Sequence record: MN895435.1
Reading direction: 5' to 3' (one strand)
Origin: Escherichia phage teqhal
DNA: 64,000 nucleotides
The notes under the pieces are model-generated. The model had not been told where the DNA came from and did not search any database. It saw nothing but the letters and a program-made list of their open reading frames with translations. Below are positions 945 through 24,310 of the stretch, piece after piece. Every line of letters starts with the position of its first letter. Position 1 is the stretch's first letter. A program made the translations under genes and the position numbers.

Positions 945-1502
945 ATGTCAGAAACTAAGCCTAAATATAATTACGTAAACAATAAAGAGCTTTTACAAGC
1001 TATTATTGATTGGAAAACAGAATTAGCAAATAATAAAGACCCAAATAAAGTAGTTCGTCAGAATGATACTATCGGATTAGCCATTATGCTTATTGCAGAA
1101 GGCTTATCTAAACGTTTCAACTTTTCAGGATACACCCAGTCTTGGAAACAAGAAATGATTGCAGATGGTATAGAAGCTTCTATTAAGGGGCTTCACAATT
1201 TTGATGAAACGAAATATAAAAACCCGCATGCATATATAACTCAAGCTTGTTTTAATGCATTCGTCCAACGTATTAAAAAAGAACGTAAGGAAGTTGCAAA
1301 GAAATACAGTTACTTCGTTCACAATGTCTATGACAGCCGTGACGACGATATGGTTGCGTTAGTAGATGAAACTTTTATTCAAGACATCTACGATAAAATG
1401 ACGCATTACGAAGAATCAACCTATAGAACACCGGGGGCTGAAAAGAAAAGTGTTGTAGACGATTCTCCTAGTTTGGATTTTTTATATGAGGCTAACGATT
1501 AA
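945..1502 (+). CDS. 55: late-transcription sigma factor gp55
   Basis: 185 aa from ATG 945 (track ORF begins at upstream GTG 939); [23 protein letters not shown] matches remembered T4 gp55; RBS AAGAGGTGAAA. Confidence 0.9.
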
Positions 1503-1704
1503 CCTCTCCGGATTCTTGGAAGAAATACCTGAAGTTGAAGCTATTCCCTATTTACTTAAAATGTATCTCAGGGAAGTTTTAGCTCTTGACATTGATATTG
1601 ATCCAGAAAATCCGTATGATACCGCTTTTAAATCTAATGGTGTAGAATTAAATTACAGGTATCATTTAACAGATGATGATTTTTATTTTATATTAGAGAA
1701 ATAA
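1486..1704 (+). CDS. hypothetical protein (a-gt.x-like)
   Basis: 72 aa ORF overlapping 3' end of gene 55; start uncertain. Confidence 0.3.
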
Positions 1705-3817: not shown

Positions 3818-4837
3818 ATGAAAATTTTAAATTTAGGTGATTGGCATTTAGGCGTTAAAGCCGATGATGAGTGGGTTCAATCCATTCAGTTGGATGGAAT
3901 TAAACAAGCAATAGAATATTCTAAGAAAAATGGAATTACTACCTGGATTCAATACGGTGATATTTTTGATGTGCGAAAAGCAATCACACACAAAACTATG
4001 GAGTTCGCCCGTGAAATAGTTCAAATGCTTGATGATGCTGGTATTACCCTACATACTATTGTAGGAAACCATGATATGCACTTTAAAAATACTTTAACTC
4101 CAAATGCCTCTACTGAGCTTTTGGCTAAATATCCTAATGTTAAAGTATATGATAAGCCTACTACAGTAGATTTTGACGGATGTTTAATTGATTTAATTCC
4201 TTGGATGTGTGAAGAAAATACTGGTGAAATTCTTGAGCATATCAAAACTTCATCTGCTTCTTTTTGTGTTGGTCACTGGGAACTGAATGGATTTTATTTT
4301 TATAAAGGAATGAAATCTCACGGTCTTGAACCTGATTTCCTTAAGACTTATAAAGAAGTGTGGTCTGGTCACTTCCATACTATTTCTGAGGCTGCAAACG
4401 TCAGATATATTGGGACACCATGGACACTAACTGCAGGTGACGAGAATGACCCTCGTGGGTTCTGGATGTTTGATACAGAAACAGAACGAATGGAATTTAT
4501 TCCAAACAACACTACTTGGCATCGTAGAATTCATTATCCATTTAAAGGAAAAATTGACTATAAAGATTTTACAAATCTATCAGTACGTGTTATAGTAACT
4601 GAAGTAGACAAAAATCTGACGAAGTTCGAATCTGAACTAGAAAAAGTTGTGCATTCATTACGAGTTGTGTCAAAGATTGATAACTCTGTCGAGTCAGATG
4701 ACAGTGAAGAAGTTGAAGTTCAATCTCTTCAGACGTTGATGGAAGAATACATTAATGCAATTCCAGACATCACTGATTCTGACCGTGAAGCACTTATTCA
4801 ATATGCAAATCAGTTATATGTAGAGGCAACACAATGA
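3818..4837 (+). CDS. 47: recombination/repair nuclease gp47 (Mre11-like)
   Basis: 339 aa, phosphoesterase motifs GDWH and GNHD, T4 gp47 length. Confidence 0.9.
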   Translation: MKILNLGDWHLGVKADDEWVQSIQLDGIKQAIEYSKKNGITTWIQYGDIFDVRKAITHKTMEFAREIVQMLDDAGITLHTIVGNHDMHFKNTLTPNASTELLAKYPNVKVYDKPTTVDFDGCLIDLIPWMCEENTGEILEHIKTSSASFCVGHWELNGFYFYKGMKSHGLEPDFLKTYKEVWSGHFHTISEAANVRYIGTPWTLTAGDENDPRGFWMFDTETERMEFIPNNTTWHRRIHYPFKGKIDYKDFTNLSVRVIVTEVDKNLTKFESELEKVVHSLRVVSKIDNSVESDDSEEVEVQSLQTLMEEYINAIPDITDSDREALIQYANQLYVEATQ

Positions 4838-16884: not shown

Positions 16885-18066
16885 ATGTCTATTGCAGATT
16901 TAAAATCCCGTTTGATTAAAGCTTCCACTTCTAAAATGACTGCTGAACTGACTACATCTAAATTCTTTAATGAAAAGGATGTAATCCGTACAAAAATCCC
17001 AATGCTTAATATTGCTATTTCTGGTGCGATTGATGGCGGCATGCAGTCTGGTTTAACTATTTTTGCAGGGCCTTCTAAACACTTTAAATCAAATATGTCT
17101 TTGACTATGGTTGCGGCGTATTTGAACAAATATCCTGATGCAGTTTGTCTATTCTATGATAGCGAATTTGGTATTACTCCAGCTTATTTGCGATCCATGG
17201 GAGTTGACCCGGAACGAGTAATTCATACGCCAATCCAGTCAGTTGAACAGTTGAAAATTGATATGGTGAACCAGCTTGAAGCTATTGAGCGCGGTGAAAA
17301 GGTTATTGTATTCATCGACTCAATTGGTAATATGGCTTCTAAGAAAGAAACGGAAGATGCCTTGAATGAAAAATCTGTGGCAGATATGACTCGTGCTAAA
17401 TCACTGAAGTCATTATTCCGTATTGTTACTCCTTACTTTAGCATTAAAAATATTCCATGTGTTGCGGTTAACCATACAATTGAAACAATTGAAATGTTTA
17501 GTAAAACCGTGATGACAGGTGGTACAGGCGTAATGTATTCGGCTGATACTGTATTCATTATCGGTAAGCGCCAGATTAAAGATGGTTCTGATCTTCAGGG
17601 GTATCAATTTGTTCTAAATGTAGAAAAATCTCGTACCGTTAAAGAAAAAAGTAAATTCTTTATTGATGTTAAATTTGACGGTGGCATCGATCCTTATTCT
17701 GGATTGTTAGATATGGCTCTTGAATTAGGATTTGTGGTAAAACCTAAAAATGGCTGGTATGCTCGTGAATTTCTTGATGAAGAAACCGGCGAGATGATTC
17801 GCGAAGAAAAATCTTGGCGTGCAAAAGATACCAATTGCACTACATTCTGGGGTCCTTTATTTAAGCATCAACCATTCCGAGATGCTATTAAACGTGCTTA
17901 TCAGTTAGGTGCTATTGATAGTAATGAAATTGTTGAAGCTGAAGTTGATGAATTGATTAACTCAAAGGTTGAAAAATTTAAATCTCCAGAAAGTAAAAGT
18001 AAATCAGCAGCTGATTTAGAAACTGACCTAGATCAGTTAAGTGATATGGAAGAATTTAATGAATAA
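16885..18066 (+). CDS. uvsX: recombinase UvsX (RecA/Rad51-like)
   Basis: 393 aa, DLKSRLIKASTSK N-terminus, Walker A GPSKHFKS. Confidence 0.9.
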   Translation: MSIADLKSRLIKASTSKMTAELTTSKFFNEKDVIRTKIPMLNIAISGAIDGGMQSGLTIFAGPSKHFKSNMSLTMVAAYLNKYPDAVCLFYDSEFGITPAYLRSMGVDPERVIHTPIQSVEQLKIDMVNQLEAIERGEKVIVFIDSIGNMASKKETEDALNEKSVADMTRAKSLKSLFRIVTPYFSIKNIPCVAVNHTIETIEMFSKTVMTGGTGVMYSADTVFIIGKRQIKDGSDLQGYQFVLNVEKSRTVKEKSKFFIDVKFDGGIDPYSGLLDMALELGFVVKPKNGWYAREFLDEETGEMIREEKSWRAKDTNCTTFWGPLFKHQPFRDAIKRAYQLGAIDSNEIVEAEVDELINSKVEKFKSPESKSKSAADLETDLDQLSDMEEFNE

Positions 18067-20400: not shown

Positions 20401-20694
20401 ATGAAAAAATTTATCTTTGCTGCAATTTTTGCTTTATCTTCTTGCGCTGCTCAGCCTGCTATGGCGGGTTATGACAAAGATTTGTGCGAATGGTCTATGA
20501 CTGCAGATCAGACTGAAGTTGAAATTCAAATTGAAGCGGATATTATGAATATCGTTGAACGTGATCGTCCTGAAATGAAAGCTGAAGTGCAAAAACAACT
20601 TAAATCTGGTGGTGTAATGCAGTATAATTATGTTCTGTATTGCGATAAAAACTTTAATAATAAAAATATCATCGCTGAAGTGGTAGGTGAATAA
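20401..20694 (+). CDS. sp: periplasmic Spackle (Sp, 61.3)-like protein
   Basis: 97 aa, signal peptide MKKFIFAAIFALSSCAAQPAMA, T4 sp position and length. Confidence 0.6.
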   Translation: MKKFIFAAIFALSSCAAQPAMAGYDKDLCEWSMTADQTEVEIQIEADIMNIVERDRPEMKAEVQKQLKSGGVMQYNYVLYCDKNFNNKNIIAEVVGE

Positions 20695-21320
20695 TGCTCT
20701 ATCAAATGCACAAGTGCAAAGATACATACAAATATAAAGGTGCCCAGTGTTATATCATTAATCGTGAAAACGCGGGTCCAGGTCATTCGCATCAATCACG
20801 GTTTGTATTCGTTAAAAACAATGAAATTATAGCAGTTGCTAATTACATGCTTGTGATTAATGACGTTAATCCGGTGCCTTTTACATATTATAATCTAATG
20901 GATTTGGCGTACGATTATAATTGGTTTAATCATGACACTTTGGCTCATATCGAAGGCGTAGGATTTGACATCTCTTATTCTAGTTACTCGTTGTGTCCTA
21001 TGAGCCGAGCTCATAGAGAGCCTGAATATTTTTCATTTCGTCGGCGTGTAGACTTTAAACGCAGCACAGAGTATGTCGGTGGAATATTTGTTAAAGATAA
21101 TCGAATTACTCGCATTATTTATCCTTTGGGCTGTGGTCAAAAAGATATTGATGTTGATTTAGACTTTACTGAAAACATCATTAATCATATTGCTTCTGTG
21201 TATTTTGATATTGATCACAAAATTGTAATATGTGGATATGAATTACCGTTTGAAGAACAGCCTAAAGTAAAAGTTTCTATTGACGATCAAATTTTTAATG
21301 CTTTTATGAATAAAGGTTAA
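20694..21320 (+). CDS. hypothetical protein (61.2-like)
   Basis: 208 aa; C-terminus SIDDQIFNAFMNKG shared with next ORF. Confidence 0.5.
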   Translation: MLYQMHKCKDTYKYKGAQCYIINRENAGPGHSHQSRFVFVKNNEIIAVANYMLVINDVNPVPFTYYNLMDLAYDYNWFNHDTLAHIEGVGFDISYSSYSLCPMSRAHREPEYFSFRRRVDFKRSTEYVGGIFVKDNRITRIIYPLGCGQKDIDVDLDFTENIINHIASVYFDIDHKIVICGYELPFEEQPKVKVSIDDQIFNAFMNKG

Positions 21321-21321
21321 T

Positions 21322-21678
21322 ATGTATAGTTCTGAATTTTCATATTTAAAAATGGAAAAAATTTCATACGATTTTATAGATGAAAAGGTTTATTACAGTT
21401 TCCATGAACCGCGTTTTAATAGTGAGGTTGGGTTTATTGTAGTAAAAGACAATTTCATTTTAAAGATATATTCGGCATTAAAGGATTTTCACTACGAAAA
21501 TATTAACCTAAAATTTGATAAAGAAAACGTTCGTAATTGTGCAGTAACAATTACAGGAAATAAAGGTACATGTGTTATGCTATCTGATGAAATTAATGAT
21601 TTGCTAAATGATGCAGAAAATATTACTGCGCCATCTATTGATGACCAAATTTTTAATGCTTTTATGAATAGAGGTTAA
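21322..21678 (+). CDS. hypothetical protein (61.1-like)
   Basis: 118 aa; C-terminus SIDDQIFNAFMNRG shared with previous ORF. Confidence 0.5.
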   Translation: MYSSEFSYLKMEKISYDFIDEKVYYSFHEPRFNSEVGFIVVKDNFILKIYSALKDFHYENINLKFDKENVRNCAVTITGNKGTCVMLSDEINDLLNDAENITAPSIDDQIFNAFMNRG

Positions 21679-21846: not shown

Positions 21847-22875
21847 ATGTCATCAATACCTTGGATTGATAATGAGTTTGCATACCGTGCATTAGCTCAT
21901 TTACCTAAATTCACACAAGTAAATAATAGTTCAACTTTTAAATTGCGGTTTAGATGTCCTGTTTGTGGAGATTCAAAAACCGACCAGAATAAAGCTCGTG
22001 GATGGTATTATGGTGATAATAATGAAGGAAATATTCATTGTTATAACTGTAATTATCATGCACCAATCGGAATATATTTAAAGGAGTTTGAACCTGATTT
22101 ATATCGTGAGTATATCTTTGAAATAAGAAAAGAAAAAGGTAAAAGTCGTCCAATAGAAAAACCTAAAGAACTTCCTAAGCAACCTGAGAAGAAAATAATT
22201 AAATCTCTTCCGTCATGTGTTAGATTAGATAAACTAGTGGAAGACCATCCAATTATAAAATATGTAAAAGCTCGTTGTATTCCAAAGGATAAATGGAAAT
22301 ATCTTTGGTTTACAACCGAATGGCCTAAATTAGTTAATAGCATAGCACCGGGAACATACAAAAAGGAAATTTCTGAGCCTCGTCTTGTTATTCCAATTTA
22401 TAATGCTAATGGAAAAGCTGAGTCTTTTCAAGGACGTGCATTAAAGAAAGATGCTCCTCAAAAATATATCACCATTAAAGCTTATCCTGAGGCAACAAAA
22501 ATTTACGGTGTTGAACGAGTTAAAGATGGTGATGTATATGTTCTAGAAGGACCTATAGATTCACTTTTTATTGAAAATGGTATAGCTATTACAGGTGGTC
22601 AATTAGACCTAGAAGTTGTTCCATTTAAAGATAGACGAGTGTGGGTTTTAGATAATGAACCTCGTCACCTTGACACTATCAAACGAATGACTAAATTAGT
22701 TGATGCAGGAGAAAGGGTTATGTTTTGGGATAAATCTCCCTGGAAATCAAAAGATGTCAATGATATGATTAGAAAGGAAGGTGCAACCCCTGAACAAATT
22801 ATGGAATATATGAAAAATAATATTGCCCAGGGGTTGATGGCTAAAATGCGGCTATCTAAATATGCTAAGATTTAA
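21847..22875 (+). CDS. 61: DNA primase gp61
   Basis: 342 aa, zinc ribbon CPVCGDS...CYNC and Toprim region, T4 gp61 length. Confidence 0.9.
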   Translation: MSSIPWIDNEFAYRALAHLPKFTQVNNSSTFKLRFRCPVCGDSKTDQNKARGWYYGDNNEGNIHCYNCNYHAPIGIYLKEFEPDLYREYIFEIRKEKGKSRPIEKPKELPKQPEKKIIKSLPSCVRLDKLVEDHPIIKYVKARCIPKDKWKYLWFTTEWPKLVNSIAPGTYKKEISEPRLVIPIYNANGKAESFQGRALKKDAPQKYITIKAYPEATKIYGVERVKDGDVYVLEGPIDSLFIENGIAITGGQLDLEVVPFKDRRVWVLDNEPRHLDTIKRMTKLVDAGERVMFWDKSPWKSKDVNDMIRKEGATPEQIMEYMKNNIAQGLMAKMRLSKYAKI

Positions 22876-23072
22876 ATCAACCCAACTAAAGCAAATGCTA
22901 AATCTACAAATGTATCAAGAGTAACTACTGGAATATTAATACCATGCGCAATTGCAACAGGTGATAGAATAAAGTTCCAGAGTAAAATTCCTACCATAGC
23001 AGAAATAGTAAAAGCTATACGTTTTTTATTACCTTTTATGGCATTAACAAGTGCCATTAATTTTTGTACCAT
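22872..23072 (-). CDS. small antisense membrane protein
   Basis: 66 aa, strong SD AAGGAGGA 5 nt upstream, hydrophobic segments; convergent with gene 61. Confidence 0.4.
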   Translation of the reverse strand: MVQKLMALVNAIKGNKKRIAFTISAMVGILLWNFILSPVAIAHGINIPVVTLDTFVDLAFALVGLI

Positions 23073-23082
23073 ATGTCCTCCT

Positions 23083-23110
23083 TATTGCTTTATATATTTA
23101 TTGTATAATT
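23083..23110 (+). promoter_or_regulatory. MotA-dependent middle promoter upstream of gene 56
   Basis: MotA box ATTGCTTTA about 11 nt upstream of TATAAT. Confidence 0.5.
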
Positions 23111-23145: not shown

Positions 23146-23664
23146 ATGGCTTACTTTAATGAATGTGCTCATTTGATCGAAGGTGTTGATAAAGCAAATC
23201 GTGCATATGCTGAGAATATTATGCACAATATTGACCCACTGCAGGTTATGCTTGATATGCAGCGGCATTTACAGATTCGTTTGGCTAATGATAAACCAGA
23301 AACAAATCGTCATCCTGATTCACTTGAAACCGCAGGAGAAGTTCTTGCTTGGTTGCGAAACCAAGACGATTATATCGCAGATGAAACTCGCGAACTATAT
23401 ACTTCTCTTGGTGGTATGAGTAATGGTGAAAAAGAAGCTTCTGCTGTATGGAAACCTTGGAAGAAACGTTATTCTGAAATGCAATCCAAGAAAATTCAAG
23501 ATTTATCTCCCGAAGATCAGCTTGAAATTAAATTTGAACTGATTGACCAATTTCACTTTTTCATGAATAAATTTATTGCTCTTGGAATGTCAGCTGAAGA
23601 AATCTTTAAACTTTATTACCTGAAAAATGCTGAAAACTTCGCTCGTCAAGACCGAGGTTATTAA
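23146..23664 (+). CDS. 56: dCTP pyrophosphatase gp56
   Basis: 172 aa, MAYFNECAHLIEGVDKA ... KLYYLKNAENFARQDRGY matches remembered T4 gp56. Confidence 0.85.
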   Translation: MAYFNECAHLIEGVDKANRAYAENIMHNIDPLQVMLDMQRHLQIRLANDKPETNRHPDSLETAGEVLAWLRNQDDYIADETRELYTSLGGMSNGEKEASAVWKPWKKRYSEMQSKKIQDLSPEDQLEIKFELIDQFHFFMNKFIALGMSAEEIFKLYYLKNAENFARQDRGY

Positions 23665-24034: not shown

Positions 24035-24042
24035 TATAAATA
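24035..24042 (+). promoter_or_regulatory. late promoter TATAAATA upstream of soc
   Basis: exact TATAAATA about 30 nt upstream of soc ATG. Confidence 0.6.
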
Positions 24043-24073: not shown

Positions 24074-24310
24074 ATGGGTGGTTTCGTTAACATCAAGACC
24101 TTTACTCATCCAGCAGGTGAAGGCAAAGAAGTTAAAGGTATGGAAGTTTCTGTAGCATTTGATGTATATTCAAATGAACACCGTATTGCAGATTCTCATT
24201 ATCAAATCTTTCCGTCAGAAAAAGCAGCTTTTTCTGATGTAGTTTCTGATGCAGCAACTTGGAAAACTAAGAATGCTGCAATGTTTACACCTACAGAAAT
24301 AGGTGGTTAA
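24074..24310 (+). CDS. soc: small outer capsid protein Soc
   Basis: 78 aa; GFVNIKTF ... VSVAFDVYSNEHRIADSHYQIFPSEKAAF resembles remembered T4 Soc. Confidence 0.75.
   Translation: MGGFVNIKTFTHPAGEGKEVKGMEVSVAFDVYSNEHRIADSHYQIFPSEKAAFSDVVSDAATWKTKNAAMFTPTEIGG

Follow-up and report, generated by a model that had tools for sequence, protein, structure and literature searches.

We asked whether the short hydrophobic reading frame on the reverse strand between genes 61 and 56 of Escherichia phage teqhal is a gene at all and, if it is, when its product would be made and what that product might do. The analysis covered a 64,000-nucleotide stretch of sequence record MN895435.1 (the window), in which a first-pass annotation had singled out this frame as an antisense gene for a small membrane protein. 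A hydrophobic frame of 66 amino acids is indeed present on the reverse strand between the two genes, and its position is given in Table 1 together with the elements that surround it. The flanking genes were named from the annotation of a phage with 99.6% identity and from that of T4.

Table 1. Coordinates of the ORF and of neighbouring features in the window
Feature	Position	Strand	Basis or remark
Gene 61 (DNA primase)	21847..22875	(+)	Convergent with the ORF; 4-bp overlap of the coding sequences
CDS of the 66-aa predicted membrane microprotein	22872..23072	(-)	ORF listing, PHROG 2024 match, dN/dS, homologues, AF2 model
Terminator-like hairpin and T-run, gene 61 transcript	23038..23067	(+)	Scan; within ORF codons 6-12 on the other strand
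Shine-Dalgarno sequence AAGGAGGA	23076..23083	(-)	Sequence; in the reverse complement followed by CAT, then ATG
Putative MotA-dependent middle promoter of gene 56	23083..23109	(+)	Sequence: MotA box, spacer, -10
T4 late-promoter-like box AATAAATA	23095..23102	(-)	22 nt before the ATG; A(-13) variant of TATAAATA
Gene 56 (dCTPase/dUTPase)	23146..23664	(+)	Downstream neighbour on (+); upstream of the ORF on the ORF's own strand

The ORF runs from an ATG to a TAA and encodes the protein MVQKLMALVNAIKGNKKRIAFTISAMVGILLWNFILSPVAIAHGINIPVVTLDTFVDLAFALVGLI. Its Shine-Dalgarno sequence had been placed 5 nt from the start codon; the measured distance is 3 nt from the octamer, or 4 nt from GGAGG. The core of this element, GGAGG or GGAG, is found at the same place in 13 of the 13 lineages compared. 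At the other end, convergence with gene 61 stands as first described, but the two stop codons do not merely abut. The TAA of the ORF (complement of 22872..22874) overlaps the TAA of gene 61 (22873..22875), and this overlap is retained in most lineages.

Several spurious antisense ORFs of 60-100 aa appear in the ORF listing of the window and, because ORFs of this size arise by chance in DNA of 35% GC, the length of the ORF is not significant on its own. That it is genuinely coding is supported by purifying selection at the protein level. Within the ORF frame, dN/dS was 0.09-0.19 (Nei-Gojobori, two independent tiers), and variable columns were distributed over the three codon positions as 10/2/15 and 7/0/12, leaving second positions almost invariant. 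Additionally, distant homologues with 20-55% identity keep the frame open and conserve its length and motifs in eight genera. These homologues have no alignable DNA beyond the gene, yet they hold W-N-[FYL]..P.A...G..LP in common.

Could the frame nevertheless have opened by chance where gene 61 has its 3' UTR and terminator, and be conserved for RNA or DNA reasons? Antisense frames of 60-100 codons often arise by chance in DNA as AT-rich as that of the window, the ORF is omitted from the T4 and JS98 reference annotations, and the terminator-like hairpin of gene 61 is located within the ORF. This hairpin (23038..23057) has a fold dG of -8.9 kcal/mol (z -1.96), and phage fPS-90 has an annotated terminator at the corresponding site. 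However, the hairpin was not found in the lineages scanned outside the Tequatrovirus type (the F2 type, Dhaka- and Jiaodavirus), and we rejected it as the cause of ORF conservation. The low dN/dS with almost invariant second codon positions, the open homologues of 20-55% identity and the conserved Shine-Dalgarno sequence and promoter box (below) also count against a chance frame, which we regard as extremely improbable. Since purifying selection in frame coincides with homologues at the same position in eight genera and with a conserved promoter box, the ORF is more than a product of chance and, as judged from sequence, is a real, selectively conserved gene.

The gene belongs to a family that has already been catalogued. 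The ORF protein matched the PHROG 2024 HMM along its whole length (E 1.4e-31, 109 bits, residues 2-66 on profile positions 1-65 of 65), and the PhAPEC2 orthologue is explicitly cross-referenced to RB69ORF029w. PHROG 2024 / RB69ORF029w (NP_861719) corresponds to the ORF in family and locus, with a full-length match and no difference. Proteins 100% identical to that of the ORF are annotated in many phages and there are 696 matching records in all, with 'hypothetical protein' the name in most of the listed matches that carry annotation. Thus, the ORF is a known hypothetical gene and not new to databases. A full-text literature search, which included work on T4 ribosome profiling, transcription start site mapping and late promoters, found no paper that mentions it.

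A word-indexed protein search returned relatives only down to about 38% identity, and an exhaustive HMM search widened the family. The latter yielded only 13 cluster representatives, all of them unnamed and without a domain. Eleven of the 13 were fetched and are 57-70 aa long; ten of those were scanned, and all ten match PHROG 2024. For one distant representative, P0050, no counterpart was found in the phage collection, and a profile search of the six-frame translation revealed no paralogue of the ORF protein in the window. The range of the family is limited to Tevenvirinae of Enterobacterales.

Homologues are convergent with the 3' end of the primase gene in Tequatro-, Mosig-, Gapriver-, Dhaka-, Kanagawa-, Jiaoda-, Moon- and Gelderlandvirus. 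The position next to primase is therefore fixed across eight Tevenvirinae genera while the other flank varies, the far-side neighbour being gene 56 in the window, dam in T4, a homing endonuclease in fPS-90 and MazG-like genes in Moon and Kanagawavirus. The first-pass annotation had made its case depend in part on the ORF being present in close relatives, and syntenic homologues were found across the Tevenvirinae. It had also known of no antisense gene at this site in T4; in fact T4 carries an orthologue at 17738..17938 of NC_000866, between gene 61 and dam, with 64 of 66 amino acids identical (97%). The T4 ORF is set apart from gene 56 by a dam cassette of about 900 bp. The orthologue is simply unannotated in the RefSeq record of T4 (NC_000866), as it is in that of JS98 (NC_010105). 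Because the ORF was left out of the T4 record, transcriptome, proteome and gene-by-gene knockdown studies that use the T4 RefSeq annotation miss it.

To judge when the gene would be expressed, we considered the DNA upstream of its start codon. In 11 of the 13 lineages compared, the start codon is preceded at a distance of 12-22 nt by a late box, NATAAATA; Moon and Melville retain no more than TATTAAATA, 15 nt from the ATG. In T4 the box reads GATAAATA (17709..17716 of NC_000866), and transcription from it would start near 17723. Upstream of the Shine-Dalgarno sequence the DNA of T4 differs from that of the window (dam cassette versus gene 56 promoter), and the box stands at 21-22 nt in both. 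The two strands of the 64-kb window together contain only 15 copies of ATAAATA, and the probability of meeting it by chance in an 11-nt slot is about 1.3e-3. As a caution on the promoter assignment, the window box AATAAATA and the T4 box GATAAATA are both variants. A(-13) is the commonest natural variant of the late box, occurring at 9 of 50 T4 sites (PMC2988020), and T(-13) is poorly conserved in relatives of T4 (PMC1524935).

The strand of the ORF is also informative. Early and middle transcripts of T4 are all of one polarity, and late transcripts use either strand (PMC2988020). The ORF lies on the strand opposite to genes 61 and 56, which is the strand used by late transcription only. It thus shows two marks of a T4 late gene, a fitting strand polarity and a TATAAATA-type box about one helical turn ahead of the predicted transcript start, with no -35 element. 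Late expression had been raised as a possibility before, and the conserved box and strong Shine-Dalgarno sequence favour it; the product is probably made late in infection. Transcription would then occur only late, by RNA polymerase modified by gp55, gp33 and gp45, from about 23089 leftwards, and a start near 23089 would give a 5' UTR of about 17 nt. Between the ORF stop and 21600 the minus strand showed no intrinsic terminator, and the transcript would therefore be expected to run antisense into gene 61.

On the plus strand, directly upstream of the ORF, is the putative promoter of gene 56 that had been noted beside it. It matches the consensus closely: an 11-nt spacer separates a MotA box, TATTGCTTTA (23083..23092), from TATAAT (23104..23109). 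We take it to be a MotA middle promoter on the basis of the consensus and spacing of T4 middle promoters. The late box of the ORF sits inside the spacer of this promoter, so that the two promoters overlap in a back-to-back arrangement. In T4 the gene 56 middle promoter is near oriA; a published review of the replication origins gave no link between the ORF and oriA. At the other end of the locus, the part of the gene 61 transcript that precedes and includes the hairpin (23038..23057) would, from the sequence, be fully complementary to the ORF mRNA. Antisense regulation, which the first-pass annotation had also raised, may occur here.

This arrangement allows another reading, in which the late antisense transcript is the main product, silencing primase mRNA or forming an R-loop near oriA late in infection, and the peptide is secondary. 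The terminator-free minus strand, the stop-codon overlap kept in most lineages and the overlap of the late box with the oriA-proximal gene 56 promoter would all suit such a role. A role of the antisense RNA alone, however, needs no protein selection, no motifs and no Shine-Dalgarno sequence, and the locus has all three: the amino-acid sequence is under purifying selection, protein motifs are kept where the DNA has diverged, and a strong Shine-Dalgarno sequence is conserved at the correct spacing. We consider an RNA with a merely secondary peptide very unlikely, with the proviso that peptide and antisense roles are not exclusive.

We next turn to the protein. The AF2 model (pLDDT 79) has helices at residues 2-12, 16-42 and 52-63, and the best 19-residue Kyte-Doolittle window, at residues 19-41, scores 2.0. 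In 19 of 19 family members the N-terminal segment contains 2-8 lysines and arginines and the C-terminal segment 0-2. The last 25 residues of the ORF protein have no K or R and two Asp and are otherwise hydrophobic. One clear transmembrane helix and a positive-inside charge bias thus bear out the earlier description of a membrane protein, and the product is predicted to be a single-pass inner-membrane protein of 57-73 aa, conserved across enterobacterial Tevenvirinae, with an N-in/C-out topology. The basic N-terminus (K4, K13, K16, K17, R18) would lie in the cytoplasm, residues ~19-42 would cross the membrane, and the last ~24 residues (HG..P...D....D plus a hydrophobic helix) would form a short acidic-hydrophobic C-terminal helix on the periplasmic face. 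Alternatively, the hydrophobic C-terminus might re-enter the membrane as a second segment. Conservation in the family is highest at the near-invariant W32-N33 and the invariant P38, which fall within the transmembrane helix.

The same N-terminal 42 residues could be read as a cleavable Sec signal, which would leave a mature 24-residue acidic-hydrophobic periplasmic peptide (HGINIPVVTLDTFVDLAFALVGLI). Signal peptidase I sites follow a basic n-region, a short h-region of 7-15 aa and an A-x-A c-region. The ORF protein has a basic n-region and a hydrophobic core, and P38 and A40-I41-A42 before H43 resemble a signal peptidase I site; small residues occupy the corresponding columns in most family members. 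However, the core of about 24 residues has the length of a signal anchor and not of a cleaved signal. Additionally, W32, N33 and P38 all lie inside the segment, and their conservation would be unexpected in a disposable signal. A cleaved peptide is therefore improbable in our judgement. Two further candidates were rejected. A signal-anchor-release (SAR) domain does not fit a helix this hydrophobic (Kyte-Doolittle 2.0), in which small residues make up only about a third, and a dual-start motif (M1/M6) as in lambda S does not fit an M6 that is not conserved outside the Tequatrovirus type.

Searches for function covered the ORF protein and its relatives. Scans of the ORF protein and distant relatives against Pfam, NCBIfam and PADLOC gave nothing above threshold; in PADLOC the ORF protein had no match and one relative gave only noise (E > 0.01). 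A profile search of PDB sequences likewise returned noise only (YejA, E 0.29; NqrE, E 1.9). Foldseek with the AF2 model retrieved only family members from BFVD and nothing from the PDB. Across Pfam, NCBIfam, PADLOC, PDB and Foldseek, then, no similarity to lysis, exclusion or defence proteins was found.

One specific function deserves separate attention. The ORF protein could be a lysis effector of the holin or pinholin kind, a small protein made late that forms oligomers in the inner membrane and makes it permeable. The ORF protein is small, has a single transmembrane helix with a polar Asn and has a predicted late promoter. The automatic UniProt name of the OE5505 orthologue is 'Holin', and two distant members match the C-terminal part of Pfam GTA_holin_3TM with E 0.08-0.1 and 13.6-13.9 bits, below the cut-off of 24.8. 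Against this, no member matches any holin model at threshold, there is no NCBIfam match, and only a single transmembrane segment is firm. Typical holins have a charged cytoplasmic C-terminal tail. When the ORF protein is compared with the features of holins, small size and at least one transmembrane helix are present and a charged hydrophilic C-terminal domain is absent, its C-terminus being hydrophobic and acidic with no K or R. The neighbours are replication and nucleotide genes, and lysis in T4 is already accounted for by holin T, which acts with endolysin E and spanins. We think it unlikely that the ORF protein is a holin.

Taken as a whole, we consider it likely, though well short of certain, that the locus is a conserved late gene for a single-pass inner-membrane protein. 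Conservation of W32-N33 (near-invariant) and of P38 (invariant) within the helix tentatively suggests helix-helix packing in the bilayer, either by self-association or by binding of another membrane protein. That a microprotein of this kind would tune a late envelope event is proposed with low confidence. The first guess for that event, equally tentative, is lysis, either its timing or its inhibition (holin T / RI), followed by late envelope protection or counter-defence. The functional guess draws only on size, topology, timing and the polar residue in the helix. We know of no laboratory phenotype that maps to the ORF interval in T4, which suggests that under standard conditions the phage can do without it.

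T4 serves as reference for its whole virus subfamily, and this gene deserves a T4 name and a knockout in view of the purifying selection on it, its constant position in eight genera and its conserved late box. An effect on lysis timing, on lysis inhibition or on survival in defended hosts would make it a new component of a textbook system; with no phenotype, it would simply join the other conserved hypothetical microproteins. The overlap of late and middle promoters also provides a compact natural setting in which to study how promoters compete at the middle-to-late switch. A broader proposal, which we consider unlikely as a whole, joins these points. An overlooked late gene in T4 and relatives would encode a bitopic microprotein that is the missing accessory of a late envelope process (for example a modulator of holin T triggering or of lysis inhibition, or a late-acting membrane counter-defence). 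Its late promoter, interlocked with the oriA-proximal middle promoter of gene 56, would fire antisense into the primase gene, coupling production of the protein to the shut-off of the neighbouring early and middle genes at the middle-to-late switch.

Several known systems resemble this one in part. The class III holin T of T4 and the small one- or two-helix holins T7 gp17.5 and phage 21 pinholin S68 are, as the ORF product would be, small late inner-membrane proteins that act via interactions of transmembrane helices, and at 66 aa the ORF protein is close to small holins in size. Unlike holins, it has no holin HMM match at threshold, no charged C-terminal tail and no adjoining lysis genes. Also comparable are RI (an antiholin), Imm, Sp and Ac, small T4 proteins that act on the envelope. 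Like the ORF protein they are short and T-even-restricted and have an N-terminal membrane segment, with a similarly narrow distribution. No similarity of sequence or fold to them was detected, and their genes mostly occupy the early/middle strand, in contrast to the ORF with its late box and late-only strand. Finally, the locus recalls type I toxin-antitoxin or 'excludon'-like arrangements in pairing a small hydrophobic peptide with an mRNA that would be fully complementary to an abundant opposite-strand transcript, here the 3' UTR of gene 61 as far as the hairpin. It differs from type I toxin-antitoxin systems in that no dedicated small antisense RNA is evident at the ORF; the complementary RNA would be an early/middle mRNA, and the two RNAs would thus be separated in time.

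The ORF lies in a Tequatrovirus genome, within the segment that carries genes 41-61-56-soc; this region shares 99.6% identity with Escherichia phage 303Ecol101PP and with related phages. The TAA codons of gene 61 and the ORF overlap, with 4 bp common to both coding sequences, and the 73 nt (+ strand) from the ORF start to gene 56 contain a predicted near-consensus MotA-type middle promoter. The first-pass annotation had described an antisense membrane-protein gene here; its description is correct save for small spacing details in the Shine-Dalgarno (SD) distance and stop overlap, and its overall reading is sound. Elsewhere in the segment, the gp61.2 homologue (208 aa, 20694..21320 (+)) and a neighbouring 118-aa ORF (21322..21678 (+)) end in an identical C-terminal peptide, SIDDQIFNAFMN[KR]G, and look like tandem partial paralogues; the 118-aa ORF is annotated in phage 303Ecol101PP, whereas the T4 annotation shows nothing equivalent in the same interval. 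A perfect TATAAATA box at 24035..24042 (+), 31 nt 5' of a soc-like ORF (24074..24310), corresponds to the expected soc late promoter and is on the early-gene strand.

Features of the gene 61-gene 56 interval (window positions)
Feature	Position	Strand	Basis
Gene 61 (primase)	21847..22875	+	ORF listing, relatives' annotation
ORF, ATG to TAA, 66 codons	22872..23072	-	ORF listing
Terminator-like hairpin and T-run (gene 61 transcript)	23038..23067	+	scan
Shine-Dalgarno AAGGAGGA	reverse complement of 23076..23083	-	sequence; 3 nt 5' of ATG
MotA-type middle promoter, predicted	TATTGCTTTA 23083..23092, 11-nt spacer, TATAAT 23104..23109	+	sequence
Late-promoter-like box AATAAATA	23095..23102	-	sequence; 22 nt before ORF ATG
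Gene 56 (dCTPase)	23146..23664	+	ORF listing, relatives' annotation

In DNA of 35% GC the length of the ORF alone is not significant, and the window has several other antisense ORFs, 60-100 codons long, that are spurious. By tblastn, 696 phage records match the ORF protein in three identity tiers (>90%, ~50-56% and ~38%), and more distant members came from searching 1.8 billion representatives exhaustively with a profile. Eleven of these were fetched (57-70 aa), and all 10 scanned match PHROG 2024, the phage protein family labelled 'unknown function' to which the window protein also belongs. Variable columns fall 10/2/15 at codon positions 1/2/3 in the Tequatrovirus tier (10 distinct sequences) and 7/0/12 in the F2/PhAPEC2-type tier (~55% identity), while pairwise Nei-Gojobori dN/dS in the ORF frame is 0.09-0.19; judged by these alignments, the ORF is under purifying selection. 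Identity to the window protein drops to 20-30% across the family, with a core motif still kept: basic residues, then a hydrophobic helix (W32-N33-[FYL], P38, A40, G44), L-P48 and an acidic residue at 53. The codon-position, dN/dS and conserved-motif pattern agrees with a translated protein and not with an RNA or DNA element. This comparative evidence is decisive for a real gene, as had been claimed, with purifying selection, fixed synteny and homologues all bearing the claim out.

In every genome examined the homologue and the primase gene converge at their 3' ends, and in most cases their stop codons overlap. This position was found in Tequatrovirus (T4, fPS-90, Pu-Krd-SF3, OES_C-3, Ec_MI-02, F2), Mosigvirus (PhAPEC2, whose note cross-references the RB69 orthologue, RB69ORF029w), Gaprivervirus (TH57, VR20), Dhakavirus (JS98), Kanagawavirus (Q7622, KLB31), Jiaodavirus (JD18), Moonvirus (Moon) and Gelderlandvirus (Melville). 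The far-side neighbour differs: it is gene 56 in the window, whereas T4 has dam there, fPS-90 a homing endonuclease, and Moon and Kanagawavirus MazG-like genes. Because dam, homing endonuclease or MazG-like genes occupy it in relatives, the slot between the ORF and gene 56 is an insertion hot spot. VR20 carries two tandem family members (1252..1449 and 1516..1656 of its locus), one full-length and T4-type, the other JS98-type, N-terminally truncated and abutting the primase gene; TH57, a related phage, has a single member. The VR20 arrangement suggests that recombination has exchanged one subtype for another.

The T4 RefSeq record (NC_000866) gives the order gene 61, dam, gene 56, with a 310-bp unannotated interval between gene 61 and dam. 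That interval contains the ORF (17738..17938 of the record; 64 of 66 residues identical), so the first-pass annotation, which knew of no antisense gene at this position in T4, was right about the T4 annotation, but the T4 genome does carry the gene. The ORF is likewise unannotated in JS98 (NC_010105; locus positions 1474..1674), although the majority of newer records list it. T4 and the window are homologous from gene 61 across the ORF and SD as far as 23083, and again from 23104; at the interruption (window 23084..23103; T4 locus 3847..4626), T4 has ~900 bp of dam cassette, which separates the ORF SD from the -10 element of gene 56. The window phage lacks dam throughout its 64 kb. The ORF corresponds to PHROG 2024 / RB69ORF029w and most related phages annotate it as hypothetical, so it is not new to databases; full-text searches found no paper on it. 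What this analysis adds is its unannotated presence in T4 and JS98, purifying selection, a conserved late-promoter box and fixed primase synteny.

The case for late expression has three parts: the strand, a late box and conservation of that box. T4 early and middle transcripts are all of one polarity, the other being used by late transcripts only (PMC2988020), and the ORF is oriented against genes 61 and 56. T4 late promoters consist of the 8-bp TATAAATA box at -13 to -6, without a -35 element; of 50 listed sites, 32 match it perfectly and nine carry A at -13 (PMC2988020), and T at -13 is poorly conserved among T4 relatives (PMC1524935). Of 13 lineages compared, 11 carry NATAAATA at 12-22 nt 5' of the start codon. 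The box reads TATAAATA in Q7622, AATAAATA in the window, F2, PhAPEC2 and JS98, GATAAATA in T4 and in two further Tequatrovirus variants, CATAAATA in TH57, VR20, KLB31 and JD18, and TATTAAATA, at 15 nt, in Moon and Melville. The ATAAATA heptamer occurs only 15 times in the 64-kb window (both strands), and its chance of falling in an 11-nt slot is ~1.3e-3 per independent lineage. In both T4 and the window the box stands at 21-22 nt, despite different DNA beyond the SD. Together these features would place a gp55-dependent start near 23089, with a leader of ~17 nt; the suggestion of late expression thus finds sequence-level support in strand and conserved box.

In the window the gene 56 middle promoter, on the opposite strand, has the late box within its spacer, so that the two predicted promoters are back to back and overlapping. 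With no intrinsic terminator predicted between the ORF stop and 21600 on the minus strand, a late ORF transcript would run on antisense through gene 61. The plus-strand hairpin is modest only (dG -8.9 kcal/mol, z-score -1.96), and fPS-90 has an annotated terminator at the equivalent site. Given its position, the gene 61 mRNA 3' UTR would be complementary to almost the whole ORF and, since the hairpin is encoded inside ORF codons 6-12, this stretch is under dual constraint. Among the loci scanned, the hairpin is present in Tequatrovirus-type sequences only and missing from F2-type, Dhaka- and Jiaodavirus loci; it was therefore rejected as the cause of frame conservation.

Hydropathy averaged over 19 residues peaks at 2.0 (residues 19-41). 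Five K/R lie in the N-terminal segment, versus no K/R and two Asp in the C-terminal 25 residues, an asymmetry common to all 19 family members examined. The AlphaFold2 model (15-sequence alignment; pLDDT 79) places helices at residues 2-12, 16-42 and 52-63. We read the product as a probable single-pass inner-membrane protein with a cytoplasmic N-terminus, whose short C-terminal helix, acidic and hydrophobic, would be on the periplasmic side of the membrane; hydropathy, charge asymmetry and the predicted helix agree with the membrane assignment of the first-pass annotation. Signal peptidase might instead cleave the product, as an A-x-A motif follows P38, although the hydrophobic core is longer than usual for a cleaved signal. 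For the single-pass protein, the position of the family's most conserved residues, W32, N33 and P38, all within the membrane helix, points to action through helix-helix contacts.

Searches of Pfam, NCBIfam, PADLOC and PDB sequences gave no match to the ORF protein, and its AlphaFold2 model has no structural neighbours beyond its own family. One orthologue is labelled 'Holin' in UniProt. This label is unsupported, because no holin model scores above threshold, the protein lacks the charged C-terminal tail that holins typically have, and T4 lysis is accounted for by T, E and spanins. Our best guess, with low confidence, is that the ORF protein acts late to modulate an envelope process, for example the timing of lysis. 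Dissimilar in sequence to RI, Imm and Ac, the ORF protein resembles these small T-even envelope proteins in size and restricted range.
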